Assembly: GCA_043822705.1 (NCBI GenBank)
Contig: JBDRBK010000124.1
Location: 1-13,367, forward strand
Length of the DNA stretch: 13,367 nt
Direction of reading: 5' to 3'
From: Fidelibacterota bacterium
Lineage (GTDB): Bacteria; Fidelibacterota; Marinisomatia; Marinisomatales; TCS56
Shown: positions 1-13,367 of the stretch, piece after piece
How positions within the stretch are numbered: position 1 is the stretch's first letter
Layout: every line of letters begins with the position of its first letter
Notes under the pieces: model-generated
Told to the model about the DNA's origin: nothing
The model's database searches: none
Seen by the model: only the letters and a program-made list of their open reading frames with translations
Translations under genes and position numbers: made by a program

Positions 1-26
1 TATAATGGACCCCAAAATTCGGACAG
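1..26 (+). repeat. Left terminal inverted repeat (IRL) of the IS
   Basis: TATAATGGACCCCAAAATTCGGACAG matches the reverse complement of 1221-1246 (TGAGGTGGACCCCAAAGTCAAGACAG) at 18/26 positions, including an 11-bp identical core TGGACCCCAAA. GTTTGCTGA is also shared further inside both ends. Confidence 0.88.
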
Positions 27-67
27 CAGTATAAGTTTGCTGAACAGGCCGAATAAAGGGAAATAAG

Positions 68-376
68 ATGGGATCAAAACGTATTCGTCGTACAAAGGAG
101 CTAAAGTTCAAGATTGCCCTTGAAGCAATTCGCGGTGAAAAGCAGGTCAGTGAAATAGCCAAAGAATACCATGTACATCCACAACAAATTGGTCAGTGGA
201 AACGCGAGTTGTTAGATAGAGGTGCGGATTTATATGCCACACAAAAAGAGCGCGACAGTAAACGCTTGGAAGCTGAAAGAGATGAGCTTTTTAAGACAAT
301 TGGACAGCAACAGGTGGTAATAGACTGGTTTAAAAAAAAGCTGGGGATCTTACACCTGCCAAGCGAGCAGCTATGA
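68..376 (+). CDS. IS3-family transposase OrfA (HTH DNA-binding)
   Basis: 102 aa. The sequence ELKFKIALEAIRGEKQVSEIAKEYHVHPQQIGQWK is a typical OrfA helix-turn-helix, followed by a coiled-coil segment. Confidence 0.93.
   Translation: MGSKRIRRTKELKFKIALEAIRGEKQVSEIAKEYHVHPQQIGQWKRELLDRGADLYATQKERDSKRLEAERDELFKTIGQQQVVIDWFKKKLGILHLPSEQL
332..340 (+). promoter_or_regulatory. Programmed -1 ribosomal frameshift site (A8G; heptamer A AAA AAG at 334-340)
   Basis: orfA reads TTT AAA AAA AAG at 329-340. The -1 frame is open from 340 into orfB (AGDLTPAKRAA-MIDR...). Confidence 0.85.
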
Positions 377-1197
377 TTGATCGCGATGGAGAACTCCCGG
401 TGGCAGAGCAATGTCGGATTCTGTTGACTCCACGGTCAAATCAATACTACCACAAGAAAGGTGAGACCGAAAAGAATTTGACTCTCATGCGGCGGATCGA
501 TGAACTCTACACCGATCACCCAACCTGGGGTAGTCGTAAGCTGCGTGATCGTCTCAGGCTTGAGGCGCAGCGTGTGAATCGTAAGCGTATCCAGCGACTG
601 CTGCGTGTTATGGGGCTTGAAGTTCTTTACCCGAAAAGGAATCTCAGTCGGCCCACTCCGGAGGCCACAATCTATCCGTATTTGCTTCGTAATCTGCTTA
701 TCAATAGACCGAACCAGGTATGGTGCACGGACATAACTTATATTCGACTGGTGCATGGATTTGTTTATCTGGTAGCAGTTTTGGACTGGTTTTCGAAGCA
801 CGTACTCACCTGGAGGTTGTCGGTAACTCTGGATAAATCTTTCTGCCTTGATGCTTTGGAAGAAGCTCTTCGCTGGTATGGTAAACCGGAAATCTTTAAC
901 ACCGATCAGGGTAGCCAGTTCACAAGCCCGAAGTTCTTAAAGCCACTGGAAGATAACGGGATTAAAATCAGTATGGATGGCAGAGGTCGGGCCTGTGACA
1001 ACATTATTGTAGAGCGCTTCTGGCGAACACTCAAGTATGATGAAGTTTATCTGAAAGATTATCATGATGTAAAAGAAGCTAAAGTTTCCATTGGGAAATG
1101 GATCAAAACCTACAACACTTTCCGCCCACATCAGGCCCTGGGGGGACTGACACCGGAATGTGTATATCAAACGGGTTGGGTTGAGAATGCAGCCTAA
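373..1197 (+). CDS. IS3-family transposase OrfB (integrase-core DDE domain); probably expressed as an OrfAB fusion from 68
   Basis: Motifs WCTDITY (D), FNTDQGSQF (D), DNIIVERFWRTLK (E) and YNTFRPHQALG are intact. ATGA overlap with the orfA stop. Confidence 0.95.
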   Translation: MIDRDGELPVAEQCRILLTPRSNQYYHKKGETEKNLTLMRRIDELYTDHPTWGSRKLRDRLRLEAQRVNRKRIQRLLRVMGLEVLYPKRNLSRPTPEATIYPYLLRNLLINRPNQVWCTDITYIRLVHGFVYLVAVLDWFSKHVLTWRLSVTLDKSFCLDALEEALRWYGKPEIFNTDQGSQFTSPKFLKPLEDNGIKISMDGRGRACDNIIVERFWRTLKYDEVYLKDYHDVKEAKVSIGKWIKTYNTFRPHQALGGLTPECVYQTGWVENAA

Positions 1198-1220
1198 TCA
1201 AACAAAAAATCAGCAAACAA

Positions 1221-1246
1221 CTGTCTTGACTTTGGGGTCCACCTCA
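1221..1246 (-). repeat. Right terminal inverted repeat (IRR) of the IS
   Basis: CTGTCTTGACTTTGGGGTCCACCTCA ends in the canonical CA-3' and is the inverted counterpart of 1-26. Confidence 0.9.
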
Positions 1247-1247
1247 T

Positions 1248-2186
1248 TTCTCCGAATGTAACTATATCTACATAATATCATATCCAAGGTTGAAGAGAAT
1301 ATCCGCACTACATTTCGCAATTCTTGGGCACGAGATAGGACATCTCTTATACAAAAAATGGAAACAAAAAACTAGTTTTGATTTTTTTGAGGAAAAAACA
1401 ATACGTAAAAAGGTTGAAGAATATATAGAAGATATTATTACAAAGGAGAAAAATGAATATCAGATTCGTGTTTTTGAAGATGAAAGAAGAGCTCATCTAA
1501 TTTCACATTTTTCTGACTCACTTAAAAGATGTTTCGAGGAGTTTTGTTGCGATATCTTTGGTATACTTATATTTGGATTTTCCTTTATCCTATCACATTA
1601 TAAATTTGGAAGTCTCTTATATCCACAAGGTAAAAACATTATAACTGTCGATGAAGGATATTACCCTTGGGATTATCGTTTAAAAATTTGTTTAGAAACT
1701 ATGTATAATTTACCGGAAATATATCAGGGGTCAGAACTACATGAAGTTAATGCATGGCTACGCTCATTAAATAATCAATATAGTAATATTGATATAAATT
1801 ACATATTTAATAATAAAATGTATGGGTACCATAAGATATTTATAGAAGAATTTGAAATATATCTACCAACTCTCATTACTGAATTACATTTAGTTACTGA
1901 TGAGTTACTTTATGAAAATATCGCAGACATAAATGATATCAACTTAGTGACAGAATATTTAAACAATAAAATTGTTCCTGCCGTTAGAATAGATGAAAAG
2001 CTTGAATCATACCCTCTTGATTTTCGGAATATTATTTCTGGAACTTGGAATCATATACTGTCAAGTTCTATTGATTTTAATAATACTGAGCTTTTATACA
2101 ATTTAATGAATCAAGCAAATCTACTTTCACTTAAAGGAATTGAATTGTCTAAAATAACTGCAAAATTTAAAAGTGGAACAGTATGA
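1248..2186 (+). pseudogene. HExxH gluzincin-like (metallopeptidase-fold) protein, probably 5'-truncated by the IS
   Basis: HEIGH (1329-1343), EEFCCD (1536-1553) and YPWDYRL. The frame is open from the IS junction (FSECNYIYIISYPRLKR...). The listed TTG at 1290 has no properly spaced RBS and lies only 13 codons before the HExxH. Confidence 0.7.
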
Positions 2187-2803
2187 CTCTTTCTGAAATA
2201 GAAATTCGTAGAAGGCTTAACCCGAATACCTCGAAATATAATATAGATAGATTAATAGTAACTCCACTACTAGATCCAAACGATCAAATATCACAAAGTG
2301 GTATTGACTTACGGCTGGGCAAACAGTTTATTTTATTTAAAACTCATATAAGTGATTCCTTAAATCCTGTTGCAATAAAAGCTGACAGACCGCAAATAAA
2401 AAAATATCAGGAAGAAATAATTATTTCATCTAAAAATAAATTTGTTCTTCATCCCGGTCAGTTCATTTTAGGTTCTACTTTCGAATATCTCGGTATTCCC
2501 GGTGATTTAGATGCGAGAATTGATGGACGAAGCTCTTGGGCACGTATGGGATTATTAATAGCTACTGCTTCTACTATTCAACCATATTTTAAAGGAGTAG
2601 TTACATTAGAATTAACTAATCATGGGTCAATACCGATTGTTCTGTACCCCGGACTAAAAATTGCCTTTATAACTTTTAAACTACTAGATACCCCAGTCAA
2701 ATATAATAATTACACCGCTGGTAAATATGTATGCTCTATTGGGCCTGGCTATACAAAAATATATGAGGATAATTATATAGAATATATTACAAACCATTTT
2801 TAG
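2183..2803 (+). CDS. dcd: dCTP deaminase (trimeric dUTPase-like fold), divergent accessory copy
   Basis: Motifs IDLRLG, FVLHPGQFILGSTFEY, GRSSWAR, TLELTN, LYPGLKIA and a C-terminal KY. ATGA overlap with the upstream gene. Confidence 0.9.
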   Translation: MTLSEIEIRRRLNPNTSKYNIDRLIVTPLLDPNDQISQSGIDLRLGKQFILFKTHISDSLNPVAIKADRPQIKKYQEEIIISSKNKFVLHPGQFILGSTFEYLGIPGDLDARIDGRSSWARMGLLIATASTIQPYFKGVVTLELTNHGSIPIVLYPGLKIAFITFKLLDTPVKYNNYTAGKYVCSIGPGYTKIYEDNYIEYITNHF

Positions 2804-2953: not shown

Positions 2954-2987
2954 TTTGCCACTAACCAGCAACACGCGGATCGGAACG

Positions 2988-3794
2988 ATGAGGAAATACC
3001 AAAATATCCTGTTATGGCTGACGGCGATTGTGATCACCCTGTCATCCGCCATTTACCAGCGCCAGACCGGCCCCACCTACCCGGTCAAGGGAACGCTGGA
3101 ACTTAATGGCGCGGCCATCGAGTATTCGTTACCCCGTTCGCACAATAGCGGCAGTGACGCCGAAGTCCGGATCGCCGTACCCGACCGGCAGTCGACGGGC
3201 GCTTACCGTTATCGTCGTTTTCGCAGCAACGATGAGTGGCAGACCATAACCATGACCCGCGACGGCGACGATCTGGTGGCGCTGATTCCCAGCCAGCCCC
3301 CGGCCGGGAAAGTTCAATACGTCATCACAATTTCCAGTGACAGCACCGCTTTTCAACCGCTGACGGACCAACCGGTCACTATTCGCTATAAAGGCGCTGT
3401 GCCGGCTTTCATCCTGATCCCTCACATCCTGTTCATTTTTATCGCCATGCTGCTTTCGAACCGCTCCGGTCTCCAGGCCTTAACGCGCGAAGGCTACCTT
3501 TATCCCTATGCCCTATGGACGACGCTGCTGTTACTGGCCGGCGGCCTGTTGCTGGGGCCGGTCGTCCAGAAGTACGCTTTCGACGCCTACTGGACCGGCT
3601 GGCCGTGGGGCCACGACCTGACCGACAACAAGACCCTAGTGGCGTTTATGTTCTGGGTCGTAGCGGTCTGGAAAAACCGTCACTATCGCCGGCCGGGCTG
3701 GGTGCTGGTGGCCAGTATCGTCCTGTTGCTGGTCTATTTGATTCCCCACAGCGTTCTCGGCTCTGAGCTGGATTACGCGGCACTGGAGCAATAA
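2988..3794 (+). CDS. Uncharacterised integral membrane protein
   Basis: N-terminal hydrophobic helix, about 110-aa beta-rich soluble domain, then about 4 TM helices with a WTGWPWGHDLTDNKT loop. ATG 2988 is preferred over TTG 2955, which abuts the -10 box. Confidence 0.85.
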   Translation: MRKYQNILLWLTAIVITLSSAIYQRQTGPTYPVKGTLELNGAAIEYSLPRSHNSGSDAEVRIAVPDRQSTGAYRYRRFRSNDEWQTITMTRDGDDLVALIPSQPPAGKVQYVITISSDSTAFQPLTDQPVTIRYKGAVPAFILIPHILFIFIAMLLSNRSGLQALTREGYLYPYALWTTLLLLAGGLLLGPVVQKYAFDAYWTGWPWGHDLTDNKTLVAFMFWVVAVWKNRHYRRPGWVLVASIVLLLVYLIPHSVLGSELDYAALEQ

Positions 3795-3807
3795 GCGGTC
3801 GGCGGCA

Positions 3808-5613
3808 ATGACCATCGAAATTGTAATCGTTCTGGCAATCATCTTCCTGACCGTGGTGCTTTTCGCCACGGAAATTTTGCCGATCGAAATCACCGCCCTG
3901 ACAACTCTGGGGCTGCTGCTGCTGACCGGAATAATCGAACCGGCGGCGGCCTTTTCCGGTTTTTCGAATTCCGCCGTTATCACGATCGCCCTGCTGTTTA
4001 CCCTGAGCTACGCCCTGCAGAAAACCGGTATCCTGGAATATTTCGTGATCCAGTTGAACAAGCTGGCACGCCGCTCAACCTCGCTGGGACTGCTGGTCTT
4101 TTTACTGTCGATCGCCCTGCTGTCGGCGGTCGTCAACAATACGGCCGTGGTCGCGATCTTCATGCCGATCGCCATCCGCCTGGCGCAGAAATATTCGATC
4201 AGTCCCTCAAAAATCCTGATACCTTTGAGCTACGCCGCCATCATGGGCGGCACCCTGACCCTGATCGGCACCTCCACCAACCTGCTGGTCAATTCAATGA
4301 TGATCGCCAGTTCCGGCGAATCAGCTCTGGGAATGTTTGAATTCTCGCGCTACGGTATCATCATTCTGCTGCTCGGCATGACCTACCTAATGCTCGTGGG
4401 TTACCGGTTGCTGCCGTCCCGAACCGTCTCCGGCAGTTTGACACAGAACTATCACCTGGGCAGCTACCTGACCGAGGTCAAGATCACCGAGGATTCCAAC
4501 CTGCTCGGTAAAACCTGCCTCGACCGCGGAATCAGTCAGAATTACGATGTGGTCGTGCTGGACATCATGCGAAAAGGCAACCTGCTGTCGACCAATATCC
4601 GCAATACCAGCCTGGAAGACGGTGACATCCTGTTCGTGCGTGGCGCCGTCGATAATCTGCTGCGCCTGAAGAAAATGGAAAAAGTCACCCTGTTAACCGA
4701 CGAAAAACTGACGCAGACCGAGCTGACGCAGCGTGATAATGTGCTGGTGGAGTGCCTGATGACCGACCAGTCCGATCTGGTCGGCCGCAGTGTGATGGAA
4801 ACTAATTTTCGGCGTCATTTCGGCGCCTTCGTACTGGCGATCCGTCGCGAGGGCACGATCCTGCGCAGCAAGATTGCCCATATAGTCCTCAAAGCTTATG
4901 ACACGCTGCTGGTTTACGGTCCCCGGGAAAAAATCCAGGCCCTGGCATCCACCGGTGGTTTTATCGTCCTGCAGGAGATCGAGGCCAAACTCAAGCGGCA
5001 CCGCTTCTGGTGGCTCAGCATTTTAGTGCTGCTGGCGGCGGTAATCGTGGCGGCGCTGGGAATATCGCCGATCATCAAGAATGCCCTGCTGGCGGTGATC
5101 GTACTGCTGGTGGCCCGGGTGATCACCCCCAACGAGGTCTACCATTCGATCCACTGGCCGGTAATCGTTTTGATCGCTTCCCTGATTCCTCTGGGCATCG
5201 CCATCCAGACCAGCGGCACCGCCGATTGGATCGGTGGCAATATTTCCCGACTGGTGATCAATGTCCCGGAAGCGGCGCGGGGCTATCTTTTACTGGGTGT
5301 GCTGTACCTGCTGACCGCCTTGCTGACGGAAGTGTCTTCCAACGCGGCGGCGGCGATCATCATGGTGCCGATCGCCATCAATGCCGCCACCCAGATCGGC
5401 CTGCTGCCGCGGCCGTTCATCCTAGCGATCTGTTTCGCCGCTTCCGCCTCCTTCATGACGCCGGTCGGTTATCAGACCAACCTGATGGTCTACGGACCGG
5501 GCGGTTATAAATTCCGGGATTACCTCAAAGTCGGCATGCCGCTAGCCCTGATTCTGTTGATTTCAGCGACGATCCTGATCCCGATCCTGTGGCCGTTTTC
5601 ACCGCTCGGCTAA
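3808..5613 (+). CDS. SLC13/DASS-family (ion transporter superfamily) permease with two TrkA-C domains
   Basis: 601 aa. Motifs LSAVVNNTAVV, MGGTLTLIGTSTNLL, TEVSSNAAAA and FMTPVGYQTNLMVYGPGGYKFRDY. Two central soluble RCK-C-like repeats (SNLLGKT...LEDGDIL; SDLVGRS...LKAYDTLLV). Confidence 0.92.
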   Translation: MTIEIVIVLAIIFLTVVLFATEILPIEITALTTLGLLLLTGIIEPAAAFSGFSNSAVITIALLFTLSYALQKTGILEYFVIQLNKLARRSTSLGLLVFLLSIALLSAVVNNTAVVAIFMPIAIRLAQKYSISPSKILIPLSYAAIMGGTLTLIGTSTNLLVNSMMIASSGESALGMFEFSRYGIIILLLGMTYLMLVGYRLLPSRTVSGSLTQNYHLGSYLTEVKITEDSNLLGKTCLDRGISQNYDVVVLDIMRKGNLLSTNIRNTSLEDGDILFVRGAVDNLLRLKKMEKVTLLTDEKLTQTELTQRDNVLVECLMTDQSDLVGRSVMETNFRRHFGAFVLAIRREGTILRSKIAHIVLKAYDTLLVYGPREKIQALASTGGFIVLQEIEAKLKRHRFWWLSILVLLAAVIVAALGISPIIKNALLAVIVLLVARVITPNEVYHSIHWPVIVLIASLIPLGIAIQTSGTADWIGGNISRLVINVPEAARGYLLLGVLYLLTALLTEVSSNAAAAIIMVPIAINAATQIGLLPRPFILAICFAASASFMTPVGYQTNLMVYGPGGYKFRDYLKVGMPLALILLISATILIPILWPFSPLG

Positions 5614-7080
5614 TCAGCGCTTAATTATTTCGATGCTGCCATTGGCGGCGGAACAGTCTATTCTACCTTCTCCGGTCCCTAAAACACCAGCAAATGATGC
5701 ATTGGAAAAATGTTCGTGCAGGTTGCCCTGAATATCGCCCACTTCAATTGAACCGAAGGAAGTTTCCAGATTTAGCCGGGCCGATAAGTTCGCGGGGACT
5801 TGTAGCCTGATCAGCCCGAACGATGATTCGATCCGAATGTCCGGGGTCATCAAGGCCAATTCCTCCGCTACTACGCTACCGTTGATCGCGATACAGTTCA
5901 ATAATGGTTTGACATCATAAAGCCGGATGTCGCCAAAACTACTTTCGGCCAGAATACTCCCGCCTATTGAACGCAGGTCGCAGGTGCCGTTATGGGCGTT
6001 GGCGGTCAGGTCGAGCTTGATATTGCTGGCTTCGATATCGCCGAATTCGGTGCGCACATTAGCAGCACCCTCAACCTCACCGATGACCACATCGCCATTG
6101 GCATTGGTGATTTTAACATCCTGCCCGACATACCCAAGTCGAATAGTCCCGAACGTATTGGCAATGTCTGCCGATCCTTTGATCCGCAGCACCTCTATGT
6201 CGGCATTCTGGCTGGTAATCGTGAGCTTGCCGCCGATATCGTGGGCGGTAATATCACCGAATGAACTCCCTATTCTGGTTACTCCGGATACACCGATAAC
6301 ATCAACATCGCCATTCTGGGTTTCACTGATCAAATCGCCTTTGATATCGGTAATACTAGACCGGCCAAACGAATTTTTCAGCCGGGTAGCGCCGGCAATT
6401 CTAATTTCCACATCACCGTTGCGCGAATCAACATTCAGGGCGCCATTGATATTAAAGATTTCGATGGTTCCAAAACGGCTGACTAATTCACAGTTCTCAG
6501 TGACATGCTGAATTTTAATATCACTATTGGTACAATCGACATTAAGGCGCCCGGAAATTTCACTGGCCGCCAATTTACCAAACCGGTTTTTCAAATTGGT
6601 CGATTGCGCCCGGTTGACGGAAATATCGCCGTTACTGTTGTTGACGGTTACTTTGCCGCCGGGATGCTGCAGGCTAACGTCACCAAACGTATTGCTGACA
6701 TCCAATTCCGCCCCCTCGGGCAGGTAAATCACCAAATTGATCTGGTAGGAAATATTCCTGAACGACATATCACGGGGCGTATGAGTGACAATTTCTACCT
6801 GATTACCGGTCTTTTCCATTTCGATTGTGATTTCATTAAGGACATCCATCACCCGCTCTTTATCGCGGGCACGAACCGTGATCGTACCGGTCATTTTAAC
6901 CAGCTCTTCGGCCGTACCGGTAACGGTGACATCGCCCATTACATTTTCGACCACCACCTTGCCGGCGGCGGTCAGGTCCAATTGATCGGACTCAACACGC
7001 CGCTCTTCATAGGCAAAATATTCGGCCTGCAGTAAAGTCAGCAGGATAACGGGAATGAGGGTTAAGCGCAAGTACTTCAT
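5614..7080 (-). CDS. Secreted DUF4097-like beta-strand-repeat protein
   Basis: Signal peptide MKYLRLTLIPVILLTLLQA, followed by many 17-18-aa repeats with xxFG/xxNG turns. ATGA overlap with the upstream gene. Confidence 0.85.
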   Translation of the reverse strand: MKYLRLTLIPVILLTLLQAEYFAYEERRVESDQLDLTAAGKVVVENVMGDVTVTGTAEELVKMTGTITVRARDKERVMDVLNEITIEMEKTGNQVEIVTHTPRDMSFRNISYQINLVIYLPEGAELDVSNTFGDVSLQHPGGKVTVNNSNGDISVNRAQSTNLKNRFGKLAASEISGRLNVDCTNSDIKIQHVTENCELVSRFGTIEIFNINGALNVDSRNGDVEIRIAGATRLKNSFGRSSITDIKGDLISETQNGDVDVIGVSGVTRIGSSFGDITAHDIGGKLTITSQNADIEVLRIKGSADIANTFGTIRLGYVGQDVKITNANGDVVIGEVEGAANVRTEFGDIEASNIKLDLTANAHNGTCDLRSIGGSILAESSFGDIRLYDVKPLLNCIAINGSVVAEELALMTPDIRIESSFGLIRLQVPANLSARLNLETSFGSIEVGDIQGNLHEHFSNASFAGVLGTGEGRIDCSAANGSIEIIKR

Positions 7081-7625
7081 ACATGCCTCTTTTCTGATTC
7101 GGTTAAAATGGCGTTCAGGCGATCGATTTTATAGCGATAGCCAGCCACCAGGTTTTCGTGCACAGTGGGATTATAGGGATTGTATTTCAACGTTGTTTTG
7201 CACTCATTGATCTGGAAATCCAGAACCAGTACATTGGCGAAATCCCTCTGCCAGCGATCATTGGTTGCGGAAAGATTCAGGCGCTTTATCTGTTGTTCCA
7301 GGCCGGCGATTTTAAGCTCATAGGCAGCCTGTGAATCAAACACCCGCTCGTCGATTGCCCAGGCATACTGCCGGGCACGGGCCGGTGAAATTAACCGGTC
7401 GGTCGGTTGCCATAGCCATATGCCCAGCGCCACCAACAGCGCCAGGCTAACGGTCGCCAGGGCCGGAATCCGCCAGCTTTGCCAGCGGAACCAGGCCGAA
7501 CGGACCGGGGCCGGCCGCTCCAGTTCGCTGACAATGTTATTCCACAATGTCGGTGGCGCTGTTTTAGACTGCAGCGTGGCGCGAGCCTGCTCCAGTAGAC
7601 GATCAAAATCTTCAGACTGTTTCAT
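7077..7625 (-). CDS. Putative single-pass anti-sigma factor
   Basis: Overlaps the ECF sigma gene. Short cytoplasmic N-terminus (APPTLWNNI), one TM helix (IPALATVSLALLVALGIWLW), helical C-terminal domain. ATG 7625 is preferred over TTG 7631. Confidence 0.72.
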   Translation of the reverse strand: MKQSEDFDRLLEQARATLQSKTAPPTLWNNIVSELERPAPVRSAWFRWQSWRIPALATVSLALLVALGIWLWQPTDRLISPARARQYAWAIDERVFDSQAAYELKIAGLEQQIKRLNLSATNDRWQRDFANVLVLDFQINECKTTLKYNPYNPTVHENLVAGYRYKIDRLNAILTESEKRHV

Positions 7626-8181
7626 AACCAATATCCATTTTCGTGAAAATAACTCTTAATTTTTCCCTGGCCCGGTGATACTGTGATTTGGATGTACCGA
7701 CCGAGACATTCATGATAGCAGCCACCTGCTCGTGGGGCAGTTCCTGCAAATAATGGAGCACAAAAACGTTGCGGTAACCTTTCGGTAATTTCCGCAGGGC
7801 CGAGGAGAGCAGTTGCCAGACATCCCGGGACGGATTTTCATTATCGGCGATCTCTGCCTGTTCATCATCCAGATCAACCCAGTGGTTGCGATGGCGCCGG
7901 ATTGTCGTGTAAGTCGCGTTCAGTACGATCCGGTACAGCCAGGGTACGAATTTTGAACAATCCTTCAGGGTTTTGATATTTTTATGCATCCTGATAAAAC
8001 TTTCCTGAATGGCTTCCTCGGCCAGGTACTCATTGCGGCTCAAGGCCAGACTGGCGCGGTACATTTCGTCCTTATAACGATCGTACAACCAGCGGTAGGC
8101 GCCCACTTCACCTTGCCGGGCGCGCTCAACTGTCGCTTCCAGCAATCGGTCCGGTCGATTATTGGCCGAAGACTGTTCCAT
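7612..8181 (-). CDS. ECF (group IV) RNA polymerase sigma factor
   Basis: 189 aa. Region 2 (AEEAIQESFIR...FVPWLYRIVLN) and region 4 (LRKLPKGYRNVFVLHYLQELPHEQVAAIMNVSVGTSKSQYHRAR). Confidence 0.95.
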   Translation of the reverse strand: MEQSSANNRPDRLLEATVERARQGEVGAYRWLYDRYKDEMYRASLALSRNEYLAEEAIQESFIRMHKNIKTLKDCSKFVPWLYRIVLNATYTTIRRHRNHWVDLDDEQAEIADNENPSRDVWQLLSSALRKLPKGYRNVFVLHYLQELPHEQVAAIMNVSVGTSKSQYHRAREKLRVIFTKMDIGYETV

Positions 8182-8189
8182 TCAACTGA

Positions 8190-8218
8190 TAGACTGCCAG
8201 GTCAGCCACAGGGTTGCA
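8190..8218 (-). promoter_or_regulatory. Putative ECF-sigma-dependent (autoregulatory) promoter
   Basis: Minus strand reads TGCAAC (8218-8213), N17, AGTCTA (8195-8190), then 8 nt to the sigma ATG. A T-rich tract lies just upstream of the -35. Confidence 0.6.
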
Positions 8219-8290
8219 TGGAAAAAAATAAAATTCATGACAGAAATTAATTAGCCGGTCAATTTGCCCATATAATTATATCACATCCAG

Positions 8291-8328
8291 ATAAAAGACC
8301 TTCGGGAACCAGTGCATCGGCTCCAGGT
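8291..8328 (-). terminator. Possible intrinsic terminator after the ABC-F gene
   Basis: Minus strand ACCT-GGAGCC-GATGCACT-GGTTCC-CGA-AGGT-CTTTTAT forms a bulged 10-bp stem with a short U tract, starting 6 nt after the stop. Confidence 0.35.
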
Positions 8329-8334
8329 GCGGGG

Positions 8335-10227
8335 TCAGCCAAGTTCTTGCTGGATCTGCTCCGCCCGCGTCAGTAAATCAAGATATTCCATTTCCAGCCG
8401 TTCCTGTTCCGCCAGCGCCTCCTGAATTACCTGGTATTTACTGGCGTTGGCCGGGTCATTCACGCTGGTGATCCGGGCGCTGATCGCCGCTTCAACCCGG
8501 GGCATTTCCCGTTGCAGGTTCTTGAGCTCATTTTCCAGTTTCCGGCGTTGTTGCCGCTCAGTGTTGCGGGATTGCTTGTCTCCGACCGGCGGTTGATCTG
8601 TTACCTGACCGGGCACAGTCGGCCGGCCGTCGGGCTGACTTATTTTCCACTCGTAATATTCATAATTCCCCGCGTATACCGTTGCCTGCCCGCGGTCGAT
8701 TTCGATTATCTGGTTGGTAACCGTATTCAGAAAATGGCGATCATGGGAAATGCACACCAGCGTGCCCTGAAAATCGGCCAATACACGCTCGACCACATCG
8801 CGGGAAATCATGTCCAGATGATTGGTCGGCTCATCCAGCAGCAGCAGGTGCGCCGGCCGCACCAGCATCCGGGCAAGCGCCAGACGGGATTTTTCACCAC
8901 CAGACAGAACCCGGACCAGCTTATCAACGGTGTCGCCGCTGAACAGGAACCCGCCCAGGTAGCCGCGAATCTGGGAGATCGTCCAGTCGCCGGTTTCCTG
9001 TTCAATGGTTTGGTAAACCGTCCGATCGGGATCAAGGATTTCCAGTTGATGCTGGGCGAAATAAGCCCGTTCAACCCCGCTACCGATTTCGAGTGTCCCG
9101 GAGGTCACCGGCGTTTCCTCGGCCAGCAGCTTCAGCAGGGTCGATTTGCCGGCACCGTTGTGACCCACCAATCCGATTTTCTGACCGCGTTCGATCACCA
9201 AGTTCAATCCCCGGTAGACCACCAGATCATCGTAACATTTGCCGGCCGCTTTGAACTCGGCCACCTTGCGGGGCGCCCGTCCCGGTTGGGGAATTTTTAA
9301 CCGGAAATGGTATTCGCTGGTCGTGGGCGGCTCCACCCGTTCCAGTTTATCCAGTTGTTTGACCCGGCTCTGGACCTGACTGGCCTTGGTATTCTTGTAG
9401 CGGAAACGTTCGATAAAACGCTCGGTCGCCACAATTTTCCGCTGCTGATTCCGATAGGCGGCAGCCTGCTGGTCCTGGCGCAGCTGTTTCTGTTCCAGAA
9501 ACCGGCTGTAATTCCCGCTGTAAAGATTAATCTGAGCCTGGTCGATTTCAACGATGTGGGTCACCGAACTGTCCAGGAAAGAACGATCGTGGCTGATCAT
9601 CACCAGTCCGCCCTTCCAATTAGCCAGAAACGATTCCAGCCAGATTGTGGCATACAGATCGAGGTGATTGGTGGGTTCGTCCAGGAATAGCATGTCCGGT
9701 TCCAGCAGCAGAATTCCGGCCAGGGCCACCCGCATCCGCCAGCCACCGCTGAAAACTTCCAGCGGCCGGTGGAATTGCTCTTCGCGAAAACCCAGGCCGC
9801 CCAGGATCCGGCCGGCCCGGTCCTCCAGCGTCCAGCCTTCCAGCCGCTCATAATCCTGCTGCAGGCGGCTCAGGCGATCCATGATTTTTGCATCGCTGGG
9901 ATTTTCCGCCAATTGCCGCGAGACCAGGTGGATTTTCTCCTCCAGCTCGGCCACCGCCGGAAATGCTTTCATGACTTCCTCCAGAATCGAGCGACTGGAT
10001 CCCGGAATGATATCCTGTGGCAGGTAGCCGATCACCGTGCCCCTGTCGACCAGCACGTTGCCGGCGTCCACGGTCTCCTGTCCCAGCATGATCCGCAGGA
10101 GGGTGGTCTTCCCCGAACCGTTAGGACCCACCAGCCCGATCCGCATGCCGGGTTTGATCGTCAAACCGGTATTGTAAAACAATTGCTTGTCCGGGTATTC
10201 CTTGCTGATTCCTTCCAGCCTGATCAC
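8335..10227 (-). CDS. ABC-F family ATP-binding protein (YheS/Uup-like translation factor)
   Basis: Two NBDs (GPNGSGKTT / FSGGWRMR / LDEPTNHLD; GHNGAGKST / LSGGEKSR / LDEPTNHLD), inter-domain linker, C-terminal coiled coil, no TM segments. GTG start overlaps the mtaB stop. Confidence 0.95.
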   Translation of the reverse strand: MIRLEGISKEYPDKQLFYNTGLTIKPGMRIGLVGPNGSGKTTLLRIMLGQETVDAGNVLVDRGTVIGYLPQDIIPGSSRSILEEVMKAFPAVAELEEKIHLVSRQLAENPSDAKIMDRLSRLQQDYERLEGWTLEDRAGRILGGLGFREEQFHRPLEVFSGGWRMRVALAGILLLEPDMLFLDEPTNHLDLYATIWLESFLANWKGGLVMISHDRSFLDSSVTHIVEIDQAQINLYSGNYSRFLEQKQLRQDQQAAAYRNQQRKIVATERFIERFRYKNTKASQVQSRVKQLDKLERVEPPTTSEYHFRLKIPQPGRAPRKVAEFKAAGKCYDDLVVYRGLNLVIERGQKIGLVGHNGAGKSTLLKLLAEETPVTSGTLEIGSGVERAYFAQHQLEILDPDRTVYQTIEQETGDWTISQIRGYLGGFLFSGDTVDKLVRVLSGGEKSRLALARMLVRPAHLLLLDEPTNHLDMISRDVVERVLADFQGTLVCISHDRHFLNTVTNQIIEIDRGQATVYAGNYEYYEWKISQPDGRPTVPGQVTDQPPVGDKQSRNTERQQRRKLENELKNLQREMPRVEAAISARITSVNDPANASKYQVIQEALAEQERLEMEYLDLLTRAEQIQQELG

Positions 10228-11558
10228 GGCGACACCATCCCTTCGGCAAGTTCACCGCGCACGTACGAACCGGTATCGGCCTGCAACCGTACCGGGCGGA
10301 TGCAGTTCGTCAGTACCGAATCTCCCCTGATCTTTGCCCGGATATAATTAGCGGTCATTCCGGACAGCCAGCCACCAGCATCGGTCGTTTCGAACAACAC
10401 CGGTTGAACGGTACCGAGATATGCGCGGATGTATTCCCGCTTCTTTTCCGCCCCCAATTCGTGGAGGATGGCAGCGCGCTTTTTCTTGACCTGGAAATCA
10501 ACCTGCTCCGGTAGCCGGGAGGCTACTGTTCCGGTGCGCTCGGAATAGCGAAAAATATGCAGATAGGTGAATGGCGATTCTCTGATCAGGTCAACTGTTT
10601 GCTGGAATTCCATGTCGGTCTCACCGGGGAAACCGACGATGACATCGGTTCCCAGGGCGATCCCCGGCGCGATTTTACCGATCCGTTCCAGCAGCTTCCG
10701 AAAATCATCCGGCGAGTATTTCCGGCGCATACGTTCGAGTACCGACGCCGCACCGCTCTGTAGCGGTACATGCAGGTGCGGGCAGATATTCGGCCGTTCG
10801 GCCACCAGAGACAATAAGCGGTCAGTGACGGTATTGGGCTCGATCGAGCTGATCCTGATCCGTTCCAGACCGGCCACGGCGCTCAGCCCGGCCAGCAGAT
10901 CGGCCAGATCGCGGCCGTCGTCATCCTGCCAGGTGCCGATATTAATTCCGGTCAGCACGATCTCGCGGTAGCCGTCGGCCGCCAGTCGGCCCGCTTCCCG
11001 GATCGACTCGGCATAGCCACGACTGCGCGCCCGGCCGCGGGCAAAGGGAATGATGCAATAAGAACAATAATAATCACAGCCTTCCTGGATTTTCAGGAAG
11101 GCGCGGGTGCGGCTGGTGGCCGAAATAAAGGGCGTTTCGAGATACTTCTCCGAATCACCAAAACCGTTCACAAACACCAGCGGTTTTTCGGATTGTTTGC
11201 CGGTCAGTTGCTCCAGATATTCCGCCAGCCGGTATTTCTCGCTGGTACCAAGCACCAGATCGACCCCCTCGATTGCCGCCAGATCGCCGGCCCTGACCTG
11301 CGCATAACAGCCCATTGCCACGATCCGGCCGGAGGGAGAGGCCTTGATCGCCCCCCGGATCACCTGGCGGCTCTTACTGTCGGCGTCGTTGGTAACCGTA
11401 CAGGTGTTGATAACCGTCAGGTCCGCTTCCGACTTGAACGGCACCACCCGATACCCGCGGGCCCTAAAATCGGCGGCGATGGTCTCGGTCTCGGCCTGAT
11501 TCAATTTACAACCCAGCGTGTAAAAACTGACGGTTTTAATGTTGCGATTTGTATTCAT
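10224..11558 (-). CDS. mtaB: tRNA N6-threonylcarbamoyladenosine(37) methylthiotransferase MtaB
   Basis: TLGCKLNQAE, INTCTVT, GCYAQ, radical-SAM motif KIQEGCDYYCSYCIIPFARG, IVLTGINIG, RIRISSIEP, DVIVGFPGET. ATG 11558 is preferred over TTG 11564. Confidence 0.92.
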   Translation of the reverse strand: MNTNRNIKTVSFYTLGCKLNQAETETIAADFRARGYRVVPFKSEADLTVINTCTVTNDADSKSRQVIRGAIKASPSGRIVAMGCYAQVRAGDLAAIEGVDLVLGTSEKYRLAEYLEQLTGKQSEKPLVFVNGFGDSEKYLETPFISATSRTRAFLKIQEGCDYYCSYCIIPFARGRARSRGYAESIREAGRLAADGYREIVLTGINIGTWQDDDGRDLADLLAGLSAVAGLERIRISSIEPNTVTDRLLSLVAERPNICPHLHVPLQSGAASVLERMRRKYSPDDFRKLLERIGKIAPGIALGTDVIVGFPGETDMEFQQTVDLIRESPFTYLHIFRYSERTGTVASRLPEQVDFQVKKKRAAILHELGAEKKREYIRAYLGTVQPVLFETTDAGGWLSGMTANYIRAKIRGDSVLTNCIRPVRLQADTGSYVRGELAEGMVSP

Positions 11559-11635
11559 AATCAATCAAAACAGGGGCTGGAATTTCGCCCTTCGGACACT
11601 TTAAAACAAGCCGGCCTTAATTCTGCCGGTGCCAT

Positions 11636-11658
11636 AATTACAACTAATAGTTGGAATT
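11636..11658. promoter_or_regulatory. Palindromic operator-like site in the divergent mtaB/XRE intergenic region
   Basis: AATT-a-CAACTA-a-TAGTTG-g-AATT: 10 of the 11 arm positions are complementary. Confidence 0.45.
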
Positions 11659-11787
11659 GAATACAAATATAGTTCTATTATGCCTGAAATAGTAGAATAA
11701 GAAGGCCGTATTATAAAATATGCATTGCGAATATGATCACCATACCTTATGTTTAACTTGATAAAACATTCAACAAATGGAGCAAAC

Positions 11788-12096
11788 ATGTTAACTGGAA
11801 AAGAATTGAAACAAGCCCGTCGCGATCTTGGACTGACCCAGAAAGGTCTGGCCGATGAACTGGGCGTCAGCCTGCCGACCGTAGTCAACTGGGAACTTGG
11901 CAAATCGACGCCGCGCGGTAAGAATCTTCAAAAACTGGACGGTTTTTTCAGTGCGGTCGAAAGCACCCCCGATCTTCTGAGTGATGAGTTGCAGGAAGCA
12001 CTGCAGGTCGTATCGGACGAACTCGGTTTCGAAGATTTGAAGGAGATGTTCAAAACAATCGTGCGCAAGCACAATCTGGGGCTGCTGGACCTGTAG
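11788..12096 (+). CDS. XRE/Cro-family HTH transcriptional regulator
   Basis: ELKQARRDLGLTQKGLADELGVSLPTVVNWELGKSTP. GGAG (11779-11782) precedes ATG 11788. Confidence 0.9.
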   Translation: MLTGKELKQARRDLGLTQKGLADELGVSLPTVVNWELGKSTPRGKNLQKLDGFFSAVESTPDLLSDELQEALQVVSDELGFEDLKEMFKTIVRKHNLGLLDL

Positions 12097-12098
12097 TT

Positions 12099-13367
12099 TT
12101 ATTTGCTGGTCAGCGTCCAGACGCCGTTCCAGTCGGCGCCGGGCGGATTGGCCTGCCAGTACTCACAGCGCGGAATATAAATCCGGCTGGGATTGGTTTT
12201 CCGGCCCGGGAACATATCTTCCAACTGGTCAGCCGACTGGAAGGCGGCAATCGCCTGTTCCCACTGCTGGTTTTTGTACAGATTCAGAGCTTGGTTATAC
12301 GCCTGCAATAGTTTTTCAGCTTGCGGTGTCAGTCTTGACGGCTCGCAGATCAGTTCATGCACTCGCACCGGTTCCGTTTTCCCCATGACCCGGACATAAT
12401 CCAGTTCGCGCCAGATAAAGCGGTCCTTGACCGCCTGGTAGGTGGCGTCGGCCACCTGGATATAGACACCATACTGTTTGGCCGAAGCCTCCAGCCGGGC
12501 GGCCAGATTGACCGTGTCGCCCATCATGGTATAATTCATCCGCATGGTGGAACCCATGTTCCCGGTCACCATCTTGCCGCTGTTCAGTCCCACCCGATGC
12601 AGCATATGATGCACTATTGCAGGCCATTCCGGTTCCGACTGCCATTTGAGTCGTAATTCCGCCAGCCGGTCGCTCATTTCCAGAGCGGTCATACAAACCA
12701 GGTACTCATGTTCCTCGACCGGCATCGGGGCGCCGAAAAAGGCAACGATGGCATCGCCGATATACTTGTCCAGCGTACCCTGATTCTTCAACAGTACTTC
12801 CGTCATGGCGGTCAGGTATTCGTTCATCAGCGCCACCATCCGTTCCGGCTCCAGGACTTCCGAAAACGATGAGAAACTTTGTATATCCGAGAAAAAGGCC
12901 GAGTGATAACCCTGTTCGCCGCCTAACTTGGGCTCTTGCTTGGTCCGGTACATTTCCTCGATCAGGTCCGGGGAAATATAGGTGCCGAAAGTCGCTTTCA
13001 GGTAACGTTTATCCTTTTCGGCCACCAGAAAATTGTACAGAAAAACGCCCAGATAGGTGCCGGTCAGAGCCAGCACCGGCCGTACGATTTCCCACATCAC
13101 CAGCTTCGAAAGAAACTGGTTGTAGGCGAAGACGATCCACAGCAGCACCGCCAGTACCGGGATCGCTAGTGAAATCAGCGGCCGTGAAATTATCAGCGAC
13201 ACCAGCGCGCCCACTAACACCGCAATCACCACGATGGCCCAGAAATTGGCGTGCGTTTCGGACAGGCGAATAAACTGATTGTTGAGAATGCTGTGCATGA
13301 CGTTGGCGTGGATTTCCACCCCGGCAAAGGTCTCCTGAACCGGCGTGTTCCGCAAATCCATCAGCCC
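12099..13367 (-). CDS. CHASE2-type membrane class III adenylate cyclase (5' part outside the window)
   Basis: The frame is open to the window edge (GLMDLRNTP...GVEIHA, a CHASE2 C-terminal signature). Three TM helices, catalytic motifs FSDIQSFS, DKYIGDAI and YTMMGDTVNLAARLE, and a C-terminal TPR-like segment. Confidence 0.92.
   Translation of the reverse strand, partial: GLMDLRNTPVQETFAGVEIHANVMHSILNNQFIRLSETHANFWAIVVIAVLVGALVSLIISRPLISLAIPVLAVLLWIVFAYNQFLSKLVMWEIVRPVLALTGTYLGVFLYNFLVAEKDKRYLKATFGTYISPDLIEEMYRTKQEPKLGGEQGYHSAFFSDIQSFSSFSEVLEPERMVALMNEYLTAMTEVLLKNQGTLDKYIGDAIVAFFGAPMPVEEHEYLVCMTALEMSDRLAELRLKWQSEPEWPAIVHHMLHRVGLNSGKMVTGNMGSTMRMNYTMMGDTVNLAARLEASAKQYGVYIQVADATYQAVKDRFIWRELDYVRVMGKTEPVRVHELICEPSRLTPQAEKLLQAYNQALNLYKNQQWEQAIAAFQSADQLEDMFPGRKTNPSRIYIPRCEYWQANPPGADWNGVWTLTSK

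Follow-up and report, generated by a model that had tools for sequence, protein, structure and literature searches.

The housekeeping dCTP deaminase (Dcd) of E. coli, encoded on the chromosome, uses Ser111, Arg115 and Glu138 as catalytic residues; its Asp128 occupies the position of the Asp of dUTPase motif 3, and its H121A mutant is inactive. Among peptidases, the combination of HExxH, ExxxD and HP..R is the pattern of the M48 family, and Lit is a single-gene protease that acts on EF-Tu. The defensive dCTP deaminase system AvcID is controlled by a small RNA. Depletion of dCTP is a proven anti-phage defence, and Tal/AvcD proteins are single chains of more than 350 aa that join a kinase to a Zn-deaminase (bioRxiv 2021.04.26.441389). 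In Dcd enzymes dTTP is admitted by the movement of a loop on which cooperativity also depends, and in dUTPases a shorter loop goes together with the loss of cooperativity (PMC4827122).

Here we describe a real, apparently undescribed mobile system whose intact unit consists of three genes: A (a small helical protein), B (an HExxH protein) and C (a dCTP deaminase of the trimeric fold). The three keep the order A-B-C, stay linked, occur as fusions and move as one cassette. In the window (i.e., the whole 13,367-nt stretch analysed here) the cassette is present as a damaged copy, the features of which are listed in Table 1. A sequence-only reading of the window had taken this copy for a two-gene system, and it turned out to be the IS-broken remnant of a three-gene one. 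What that reading had described in the letters themselves was confirmed, i.e., two AT-rich genes joined by an ATGA overlap beside an IS and foreign to their neighbours, the HExxH, ExxxD and YPxxxR motifs of the first gene, and a Dcd-like second gene of the trimeric fold and not the Zn-deaminase type; its interpretation overall is partly supported.

Table 1. Features of the window and of the cassette copy within it (positions count from the first nucleotide of the window).
Feature	Position	Strand	Remarks
Window, start of contig C124			Source assembly 3.34 Mb, 93%-complete, GC 0.53
IS3-family insertion sequence	1..1246	+	Cuts the HExxH gene; outside the system
Gene B remnant	1248..2186	+	About residues 160-470 of a 460-500-aa gluzincin-like HExxH protein
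HExxH (HEIGH)	1329..1343	+	Two predicted zinc ligands and catalytic Glu; invariant in alignments of 83 and of 92 homologues
ExxxD	1539..1553	+	Predicted third zinc ligand, gluzincin arrangement; E257, D261 invariant
YPxxxR (YPWDYR)	1662..1679	+	Counterpart of the compact-subfamily HPxxxxR; R300 invariant
Gene C, intact	2183..2803	+	Trimeric-fold dCTP deaminase, 206 aa; TIGR02274 127.9 bits; PF22769 E 4e-31
Dcd active-site segment	2531..2611	+	S117, R121, E143; feedback loop 2552-2584

The insertion sequence carries orfA (68-376) and orfB (373-1197), with Pfam matches to HTH_Tnp_1 and rve, and comparison of its ends revealed imperfect terminal inverted repeats with GGACCCCAAAA common to both. 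The open frame of B has no start of its own and sets in at the right boundary of the IS (1246), and because its residue 3 aligns with residue 161 of a 484-aa homologue, about 158 N-terminal residues were removed by the IS; by comparison with the models of intact homologues described below, the helical bundle at the N-terminus is gone, as is part of the zincin sheet. B and C overlap at 2183-2186 and have GC contents of 0.28 and 0.33 (GC3 0.20 in both), against 0.58 (GC3 0.73) in the next gene and 0.53 in the genome. Neither the missing 5′ part of B nor an upstream gene A was found in the 93%-complete assembly by tblastn or six-frame HMM search, and a search with the truncated window protein as query, which gives weak evidence, returned no longer B forms. 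Contigs built from one public run (8% of words) covered the IS plus 168 nt of B; an allele free of the IS was not among them, which at this sampling carries no information. With the N-terminal ~158 residues of B lost and no A in the assembly, this copy of the cassette is probably dead.

Contig C57 opens with the first 140 nt of the IS, and contig C167 with the last 140 nt. DNA to the left of the IS end on C57 is GC-rich and unrelated, with no 5′ part of B or gene A in it, and the second right end of this IS, on C167, adjoins an AT-rich ORF remnant without its own start (C167:141-557); with the remnants on C167 and in the window, the IS appears to land in foreign AT-rich genes. The remainder of the window (2955-13361) looks like ordinary GC-rich host genes, which we take to encode a transporter, a sigma factor and its partner, an ABC-F ATPase, a radical-SAM methylthiotransferase, an HTH protein and an adenylate cyclase; a Pfam scan of 2955-3794 gave no match. 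Elsewhere in the assembly, the AT-rich ends of contigs C123 and C213 hold apparent halves of one protein, from its motifs presumably of the DUF262/DUF1524 type (GmrSD-like).

To follow B beyond the window we searched 1.84 billion representative proteins, which gave 128 matches with E up to 0.001, mostly 450-510 aa long; the window protein is one of these matches, and one or more of them (P0119 at least) are spurious. Of 26 loci found through B, we dropped one (L029, a weak 671-aa match without dcd), and four ended inside B; a fragmentary record (L040) was left out of the locus set. In all 21 remaining loci, i.e., those with downstream DNA, dcd was the next gene 3′ of B on the same strand, with B broken or split in L016 and L019 and dcd reduced to a short piece in L021. 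The same adjacency was seen in six plasmid loci (L034, L038, L039 and L041-L043), and one locus found through its dcd (L005) has B too. There was no B near 8 of the 10 plasmid dcd matches inspected, nor near 19 dcd loci from the order of the host; with so many dcd loci lacking B, the linkage is a property of one particular kind of Dcd. Three natural B-C fusions of 713-726 aa (P0094, P0105 and P0109) and a probable A-B fusion (P0061, 598 aa, with an A-like N-terminus at a pairwise E of 1e-5) join the products physically. Pairwise similarities of B and C co-varied across 23 loci (Spearman 0.78), a value reached in 0 of 2000 permutations that treat related loci as independent, which they are not. 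In a further protein, P0028 (402 aa), the N-terminal ~300 residues of B run straight into the C-terminal half of a Dcd, through an internal deletion or a misassembly spanning the B and C genes.

Upstream of B, a same-strand ORF of 101-213 aa ended at the B start wherever the upstream DNA extended for 330 nt or more (29 of 29 loci), a raw count that carries no chance control and leaves out L016, L031 and L039. These ORFs, which we call A, are annotated as hypothetical in isolates and fall into BLAST groups of 8, 8, 2 and 2 members, with no residue found invariant across the groups, no HTH detected in Pfam scans and no usable match in the Atlas. With no residue common to all groups, A is a putative single family, and any role assigned to it is putative as well. 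Some cassettes are preceded by optional regulators, either MerR-like (L006, L012, L015, L018, L023 and L034) or MraZ-like (L013 and L019). Two loci (L014:6570-7157 and L022:421-951) have, before A, a conserved gene of 176-195 aa and of no known family, 34% identical between them, which is possibly a fourth component. Other accessory dcd genes keep different company: on an Acidiphilium plasmid dcd directly follows a ribonuclease HII gene (L074:3182-4456), and on a haloarchaeal plasmid it is preceded by a pair of hypothetical genes, of 285 and 319 aa (L070:1098-3576), neither of which is recognised by the B profile.

The motifs of B are not a matter of chance, because H186, E187, H190, E257, D261 and R300 were invariant across 83 aligned homologues; in 92 aligned members of a compact subfamily the HExxH, E205, D209, H237, P238 and R243 were equally invariant. 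The model of a full-length homologue (pLDDT 94.8, pTM 0.93) runs from an N-terminal helical bundle through a small sheet, the HExxH helix and the Glu helix to a C-terminal helical region. Searches with the whole fold were swamped by helical bundles, and we therefore modelled the core in isolation (pLDDT 85.7); in both models the HExxH and the downstream Glu lie on successive helices. With VIA, the core matched Ste24 and ZMPSTE24 best, at modest scores (Z 7.3, rmsd 5.7-5.9 over 137-151 residues), followed by M1, M48, M13 and M4-type peptidases and PprI (Z 5.6). Most of the 50 rows were zinc metallopeptidases, the list also includes non-peptidase zincin folds such as YbeY, and some matches (lethal-factor N-domain, TFIID) are, we assume, non-catalytic zincin folds. 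Foldseek returned nothing for the core with E below 0.001, and a PDB sequence search with the B profile gave nothing meaningful. In the Atlas we found 30 look-alike clusters without Pfam, and the nearest Pfam-bearing clusters were those of Peptidase U49 (Lit) and M48, at scores of 0.78-0.79 that, being below 0.9, serve only as a lead. Neither M48 (PF01435) nor U49 (PF10463) gave a Pfam match at E up to 0.1-1, including in 11 unfused homologues, and scans of the window gene B with Pfam, PADLOC and NCBIfam produced no meaningful match.

On these models, B is an unnamed gluzincin-like family with a predicted zincin fold and a complete metal site, weakly nearest to M48, and we expect it to be a zinc protease, with proteolysis as its predicted activity. 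The large helical additions around its core, the weakness of the fold match and the presence of B beside the Dcd product in fusions would also suit a metal-dependent hydrolase other than a protease, or a scaffold, acting on nucleotides together with C, which would still make the cassette a conflict module. This is quite improbable, as B has the full HExxH, ExxxD and HP/YP..R set found in M48 and Ste24 is its top structural match.

Two deaminases of the module scored above the curated TIGR02274 cut-off of 92.8 bits (127.9 in the window and 113.4 in a second enzyme). In an alignment to the E. coli structure (1xs1), window residues S117, R121 and E143 fall on S111, R115 and E138, and the catalytic Ser, Arg and Glu were invariant in 18 module enzymes. 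The adjoining HVTA loop is altered. In the window it is one residue short, without His121 and with Gln133 at the Asp128 position; among 28 module Dcds it is one residue shorter in 23 (11 residues) and three shorter in 5 (9 residues), the loop His is absent in all 28, and Asp128 is kept in 3. Stand-alone Dcds had a 12-residue loop with the His in 23 of 27 cases (absent in 4), 17 of those being close kin from the order of the host. We infer from these substitutions that module Dcds would have weakened dTTP feedback and no dUTPase activity. The loss of the His could also mean low or altered activity and not deregulation, because the E. coli H121A enzyme is inactive. In a quick tree the module Dcds formed one clade (SH-aLRT 89); a more careful tree gave two changes, with one origin in 55% of bootstrap trees, and we make no claim of a single origin.

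The sequence-only reading had named one way in which the window dcd might prove ordinary, i.e., as the only copy of its genome and one following the species tree. The first part stood: this is the sole dcd in the assembly, where a separate dut lies on contig C136. The outcome as a whole is mixed, as we found dcd in none of 8 genomes of the same family and in 20 of 121 of the same order, 16 of the 20 from one genus; with dcd so sparse among relatives, the window gene does not look like a housekeeping copy of the lineage. Across 201 genomes from the phylum, B turned up in 3, source genome included. The nearest locus is in a Neomarinimicrobiota MAG, with a dcd 64% identical. That nearest module Dcd has a C-terminal extension of ~70 aa (L005:3466-4296) whose motif, as we read it, resembles the N-terminus of a HicB-type antitoxin, and a ParE gene lies nearby.

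A sole dcd, relatives that mostly lack one among those searched, and plasmid stand-alone dcd genes beside thyX or folE2 could together suggest an auxiliary cassette that supplies thymidylate to a carrier phage or plasmid, or to a host without dcd. We consider this highly improbable: the carriers among E. coli and the rhizobia should already possess a dcd on the chromosome, the obligate presence of A and B and the defence neighbours would be left unexplained, and two B queries found no match in 50,697 GenBank phage records.

The genomic settings of the cassette show that it moves. In E. coli it is a 2,422-nt insert (at about 51,150-53,570 in NZ_CP061103.1) that replaces 24 nt of an otherwise matching phage-plasmid of 90-97 kb, whose ref, icd, ant, mat and baseplate genes lead us to regard it as P1-like. 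It was present in 8 of 5,426 complete E. coli genomes, always on plasmids, while the backbone matched in 461 genomes. Viral scans yielded two distinct prophage contigs and nothing else, and in the PHROGs database A and B correspond to phrog_27938 and phrog_24479, both families of unknown function. One cassette lies in a P2-like prophage of Burkholderia pseudomallei. We considered whether this site is the P2 gpA-gpQ hotspot and rejected it, as the cassette stands between an integrase and a portal gene, with no gpA identified there. One compact B subfamily alone comprises at least 436 clusters, and the named ones among 120 listed are all 'hypothetical protein'.

Several copies sit among known defence genes, in contexts that were read locus by locus. 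The Emticicia copy (EMTOL_RS20030-20040) is set within a type I RM operon, with hsdR to one side of it and hsdS/hsdM to the other. In Rhizobium CIAT894 (L041; RHEC894_RS22780-22790) the cassette is flanked on one side by an anti-phage dCTP deaminase (NF041025), IrrE/HTH and multi-ubiquitin/ThiF genes and on the other by a PtuA-like (Septu-like) ATPase; an Agrobacterium island resembles this one, with SIR2 in addition. Another copy is inside Tn7 with ThiF/E2 genes nearby (L015 has ThiF/E2), and other neighbours include HNH and relaxase genes as well as CHAT, PLD, patatin and S8 genes. On two rhizobial plasmids (L041:3966-6597 and L043:3854-6482) a same-strand operon of multi-ubiquitin, ThiF and DUF6527 genes stands directly 5′ of the cassette. 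Against a role in defence, some settings are ordinary: a polysaccharide cluster (L008), the position after ftsZ (L014), one by dnaN (L018) and an ABC transporter (L020). The earlier expectations that the genes would be conserved neighbours elsewhere and form a mobile unit, often in defence islands, were thus borne out by the 21 loci, the natural fusions, the phage-plasmid insert and the RM, Septu-like and SIR2 surroundings.

Carriage by plasmids, Tn7 and prophages, the optional MerR-like or MraZ-like regulators and the PprI match of B would also fit a stress or addiction module of mobile elements, in which DNA damage or loss of the element leads an IrrE/PprI-like protease to inactivate A, and the released deaminase arrests growth or raises mutation. 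Such a module is improbable, given that the cassette occurs inside an RM operon and amid several known defence genes, that A shows no HTH in Pfam scans and that the occurrence is patchy at a variable phage-plasmid site.

That the cassette protects against phage, by whatever mechanism, is our prediction and we hold it to be likely. Our leading reading of how it does so, which we hold only tentatively, is a protease-gated system for depleting dCTP, in which A and B would form the switch and C the effector. A would hold the system in check until some cue from the phage switches on B, the zinc protease; active B would then cleave or displace A, or trim C. The freed deaminase, poorly braked by dTTP, would turn dCTP into dUTP, which the host Dut would pass on to dUMP, leaving phage DNA synthesis starved or loaded with uracil. 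With Dut present in the host, dUTP itself may not accumulate.

The roles might also be reversed, with C as a sensor or signal maker (making dUTP, deaminating phage-modified dCTP or only binding a pyrimidine dNTP), B as a Lit-like toxic protease acting on a host target, and A as an adaptor or inhibitor. U49-bearing clusters are the nearest named Atlas neighbours of B, with U49 in 23% of their members, B-C fusions suit allosteric coupling, and the same defence contexts fit; the altered loop of C lines the base pocket (PMC4827122), so that specificity may have changed. Against it, all three catalytic residues of C are invariant, dUTP would be cleared by the host Dut, and the Atlas score is below 0.9. 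The E. coli alleles bear on the same question: two of them have an identical C, differ by 1 residue in A and by 26 residues plus a 4-residue indel in B, with all B differences within residues 38-246 (pN 0.035, pS 0.228, pN/pS ~0.15). Such a swap beside an unchanged C is more like a variable sensor in B, and altogether we judge the reversed arrangement unlikely, if worth keeping in mind. The allele difference in B is a recombined tract under purifying selection; an arms-race signature (i.e., positive selection) was considered and rejected on the same grounds.

Returning to the system as a whole, we think it probable that the cassette is an unnamed, widespread immune system that couples a trimeric dUTPase-fold deaminase to a new gluzincin family. 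In it, proteolysis and pyrimidine-nucleotide chemistry would gate each other, either through a protease-released, feedback-free drain of dCTP or through a toxic protease set off by a nucleotide signal that contains uracil or a modified pyrimidine. If true, dCTP-based antiviral defence evolved a second time, from an unrelated fold, and is controlled post-translationally by a protease family without a Pfam, NCBIfam or PADLOC model. As C is annotated plainly as 'dcd', such systems would hide as housekeeping genes. The 2.4-kb cassette is natural to E. coli phage-plasmids and offers clear targets for point mutation, which makes it readily testable, and the remodelled loop of C is a natural test of dTTP feedback in the Dcd family.

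The sequence-only reading had recognised no named system here, and the databases agree: A and B matched no model in PADLOC 2.0 or NCBIfam 20.0, 83 members of B gave only single, scattered weak matches, and further sets of 15 and 20 A/B/C proteins gave no PADLOC or NCBIfam match for A or B. Topical and accession searches of the literature, which covered listings and the beginnings of abstracts and left subscription journals mostly outside, returned no description of A-B-C. The words 'deaminase' and 'peptidase' are absent from the main texts of the DefensePredictor and Mordret studies (bioRxiv 2025.01.08.631726 and 2025.01.08.631966), the supplements of which could list the candidate. An 'anti-phage dCTP deaminase' is mentioned for a Burkholderia island in one article (PMC12755741), where it is not shown to be the A-B-C cassette.

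Several described systems share parts with the cassette. The closest in predicted outcome is the Tal anti-phage dCTP deaminase (NF041025)/AvcID, which is also mobile, converts dCTP to dUTP/dUMP in infection and stands side by side with the cassette in Rhizobium (L041). Unlike these proteins, C has the trimeric dUTPase fold (TIGR02274 and PF22769, not NF041025) and is ~200-245 aa long, and the cassette has no kinase and two partner genes, with B as the fusion partner where C is fused. Housekeeping Dcd and Dcd:Dut enzymes (E. coli 1xs1, M. tuberculosis 2qxx) belong to the same fold family as C and share its catalytic Ser, Arg and Glu; C differs from them in its shorter, His-less loop, the frequent loss of Asp128, its obligate A-B neighbours and its patchy, mobile occurrence. 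With Lit (Peptidase U49) and the M48 gluzincins Ste24 and BepA, B shares the HExxH, ExxxD and HP..R motifs and the zincin core, but it carries additional helical domains at both termini, its model shows no evident membrane segments, it has no U49 or M48 Pfam match, and a nucleotide enzyme is coupled to it. The CapP/CapH and IrrE/PprI switches likewise place a zincin beside a small partner of the kind that B might cleave, and PprI is a weak fold match of B; here, however, Pfam does not identify A as an HTH repressor, B is much larger, and a separate, ordinary IrrE/HTH pair occurs in the same Rhizobium and Agrobacterium islands as the cassette. The strategy is thus probably of a known kind, reached with unrelated parts.
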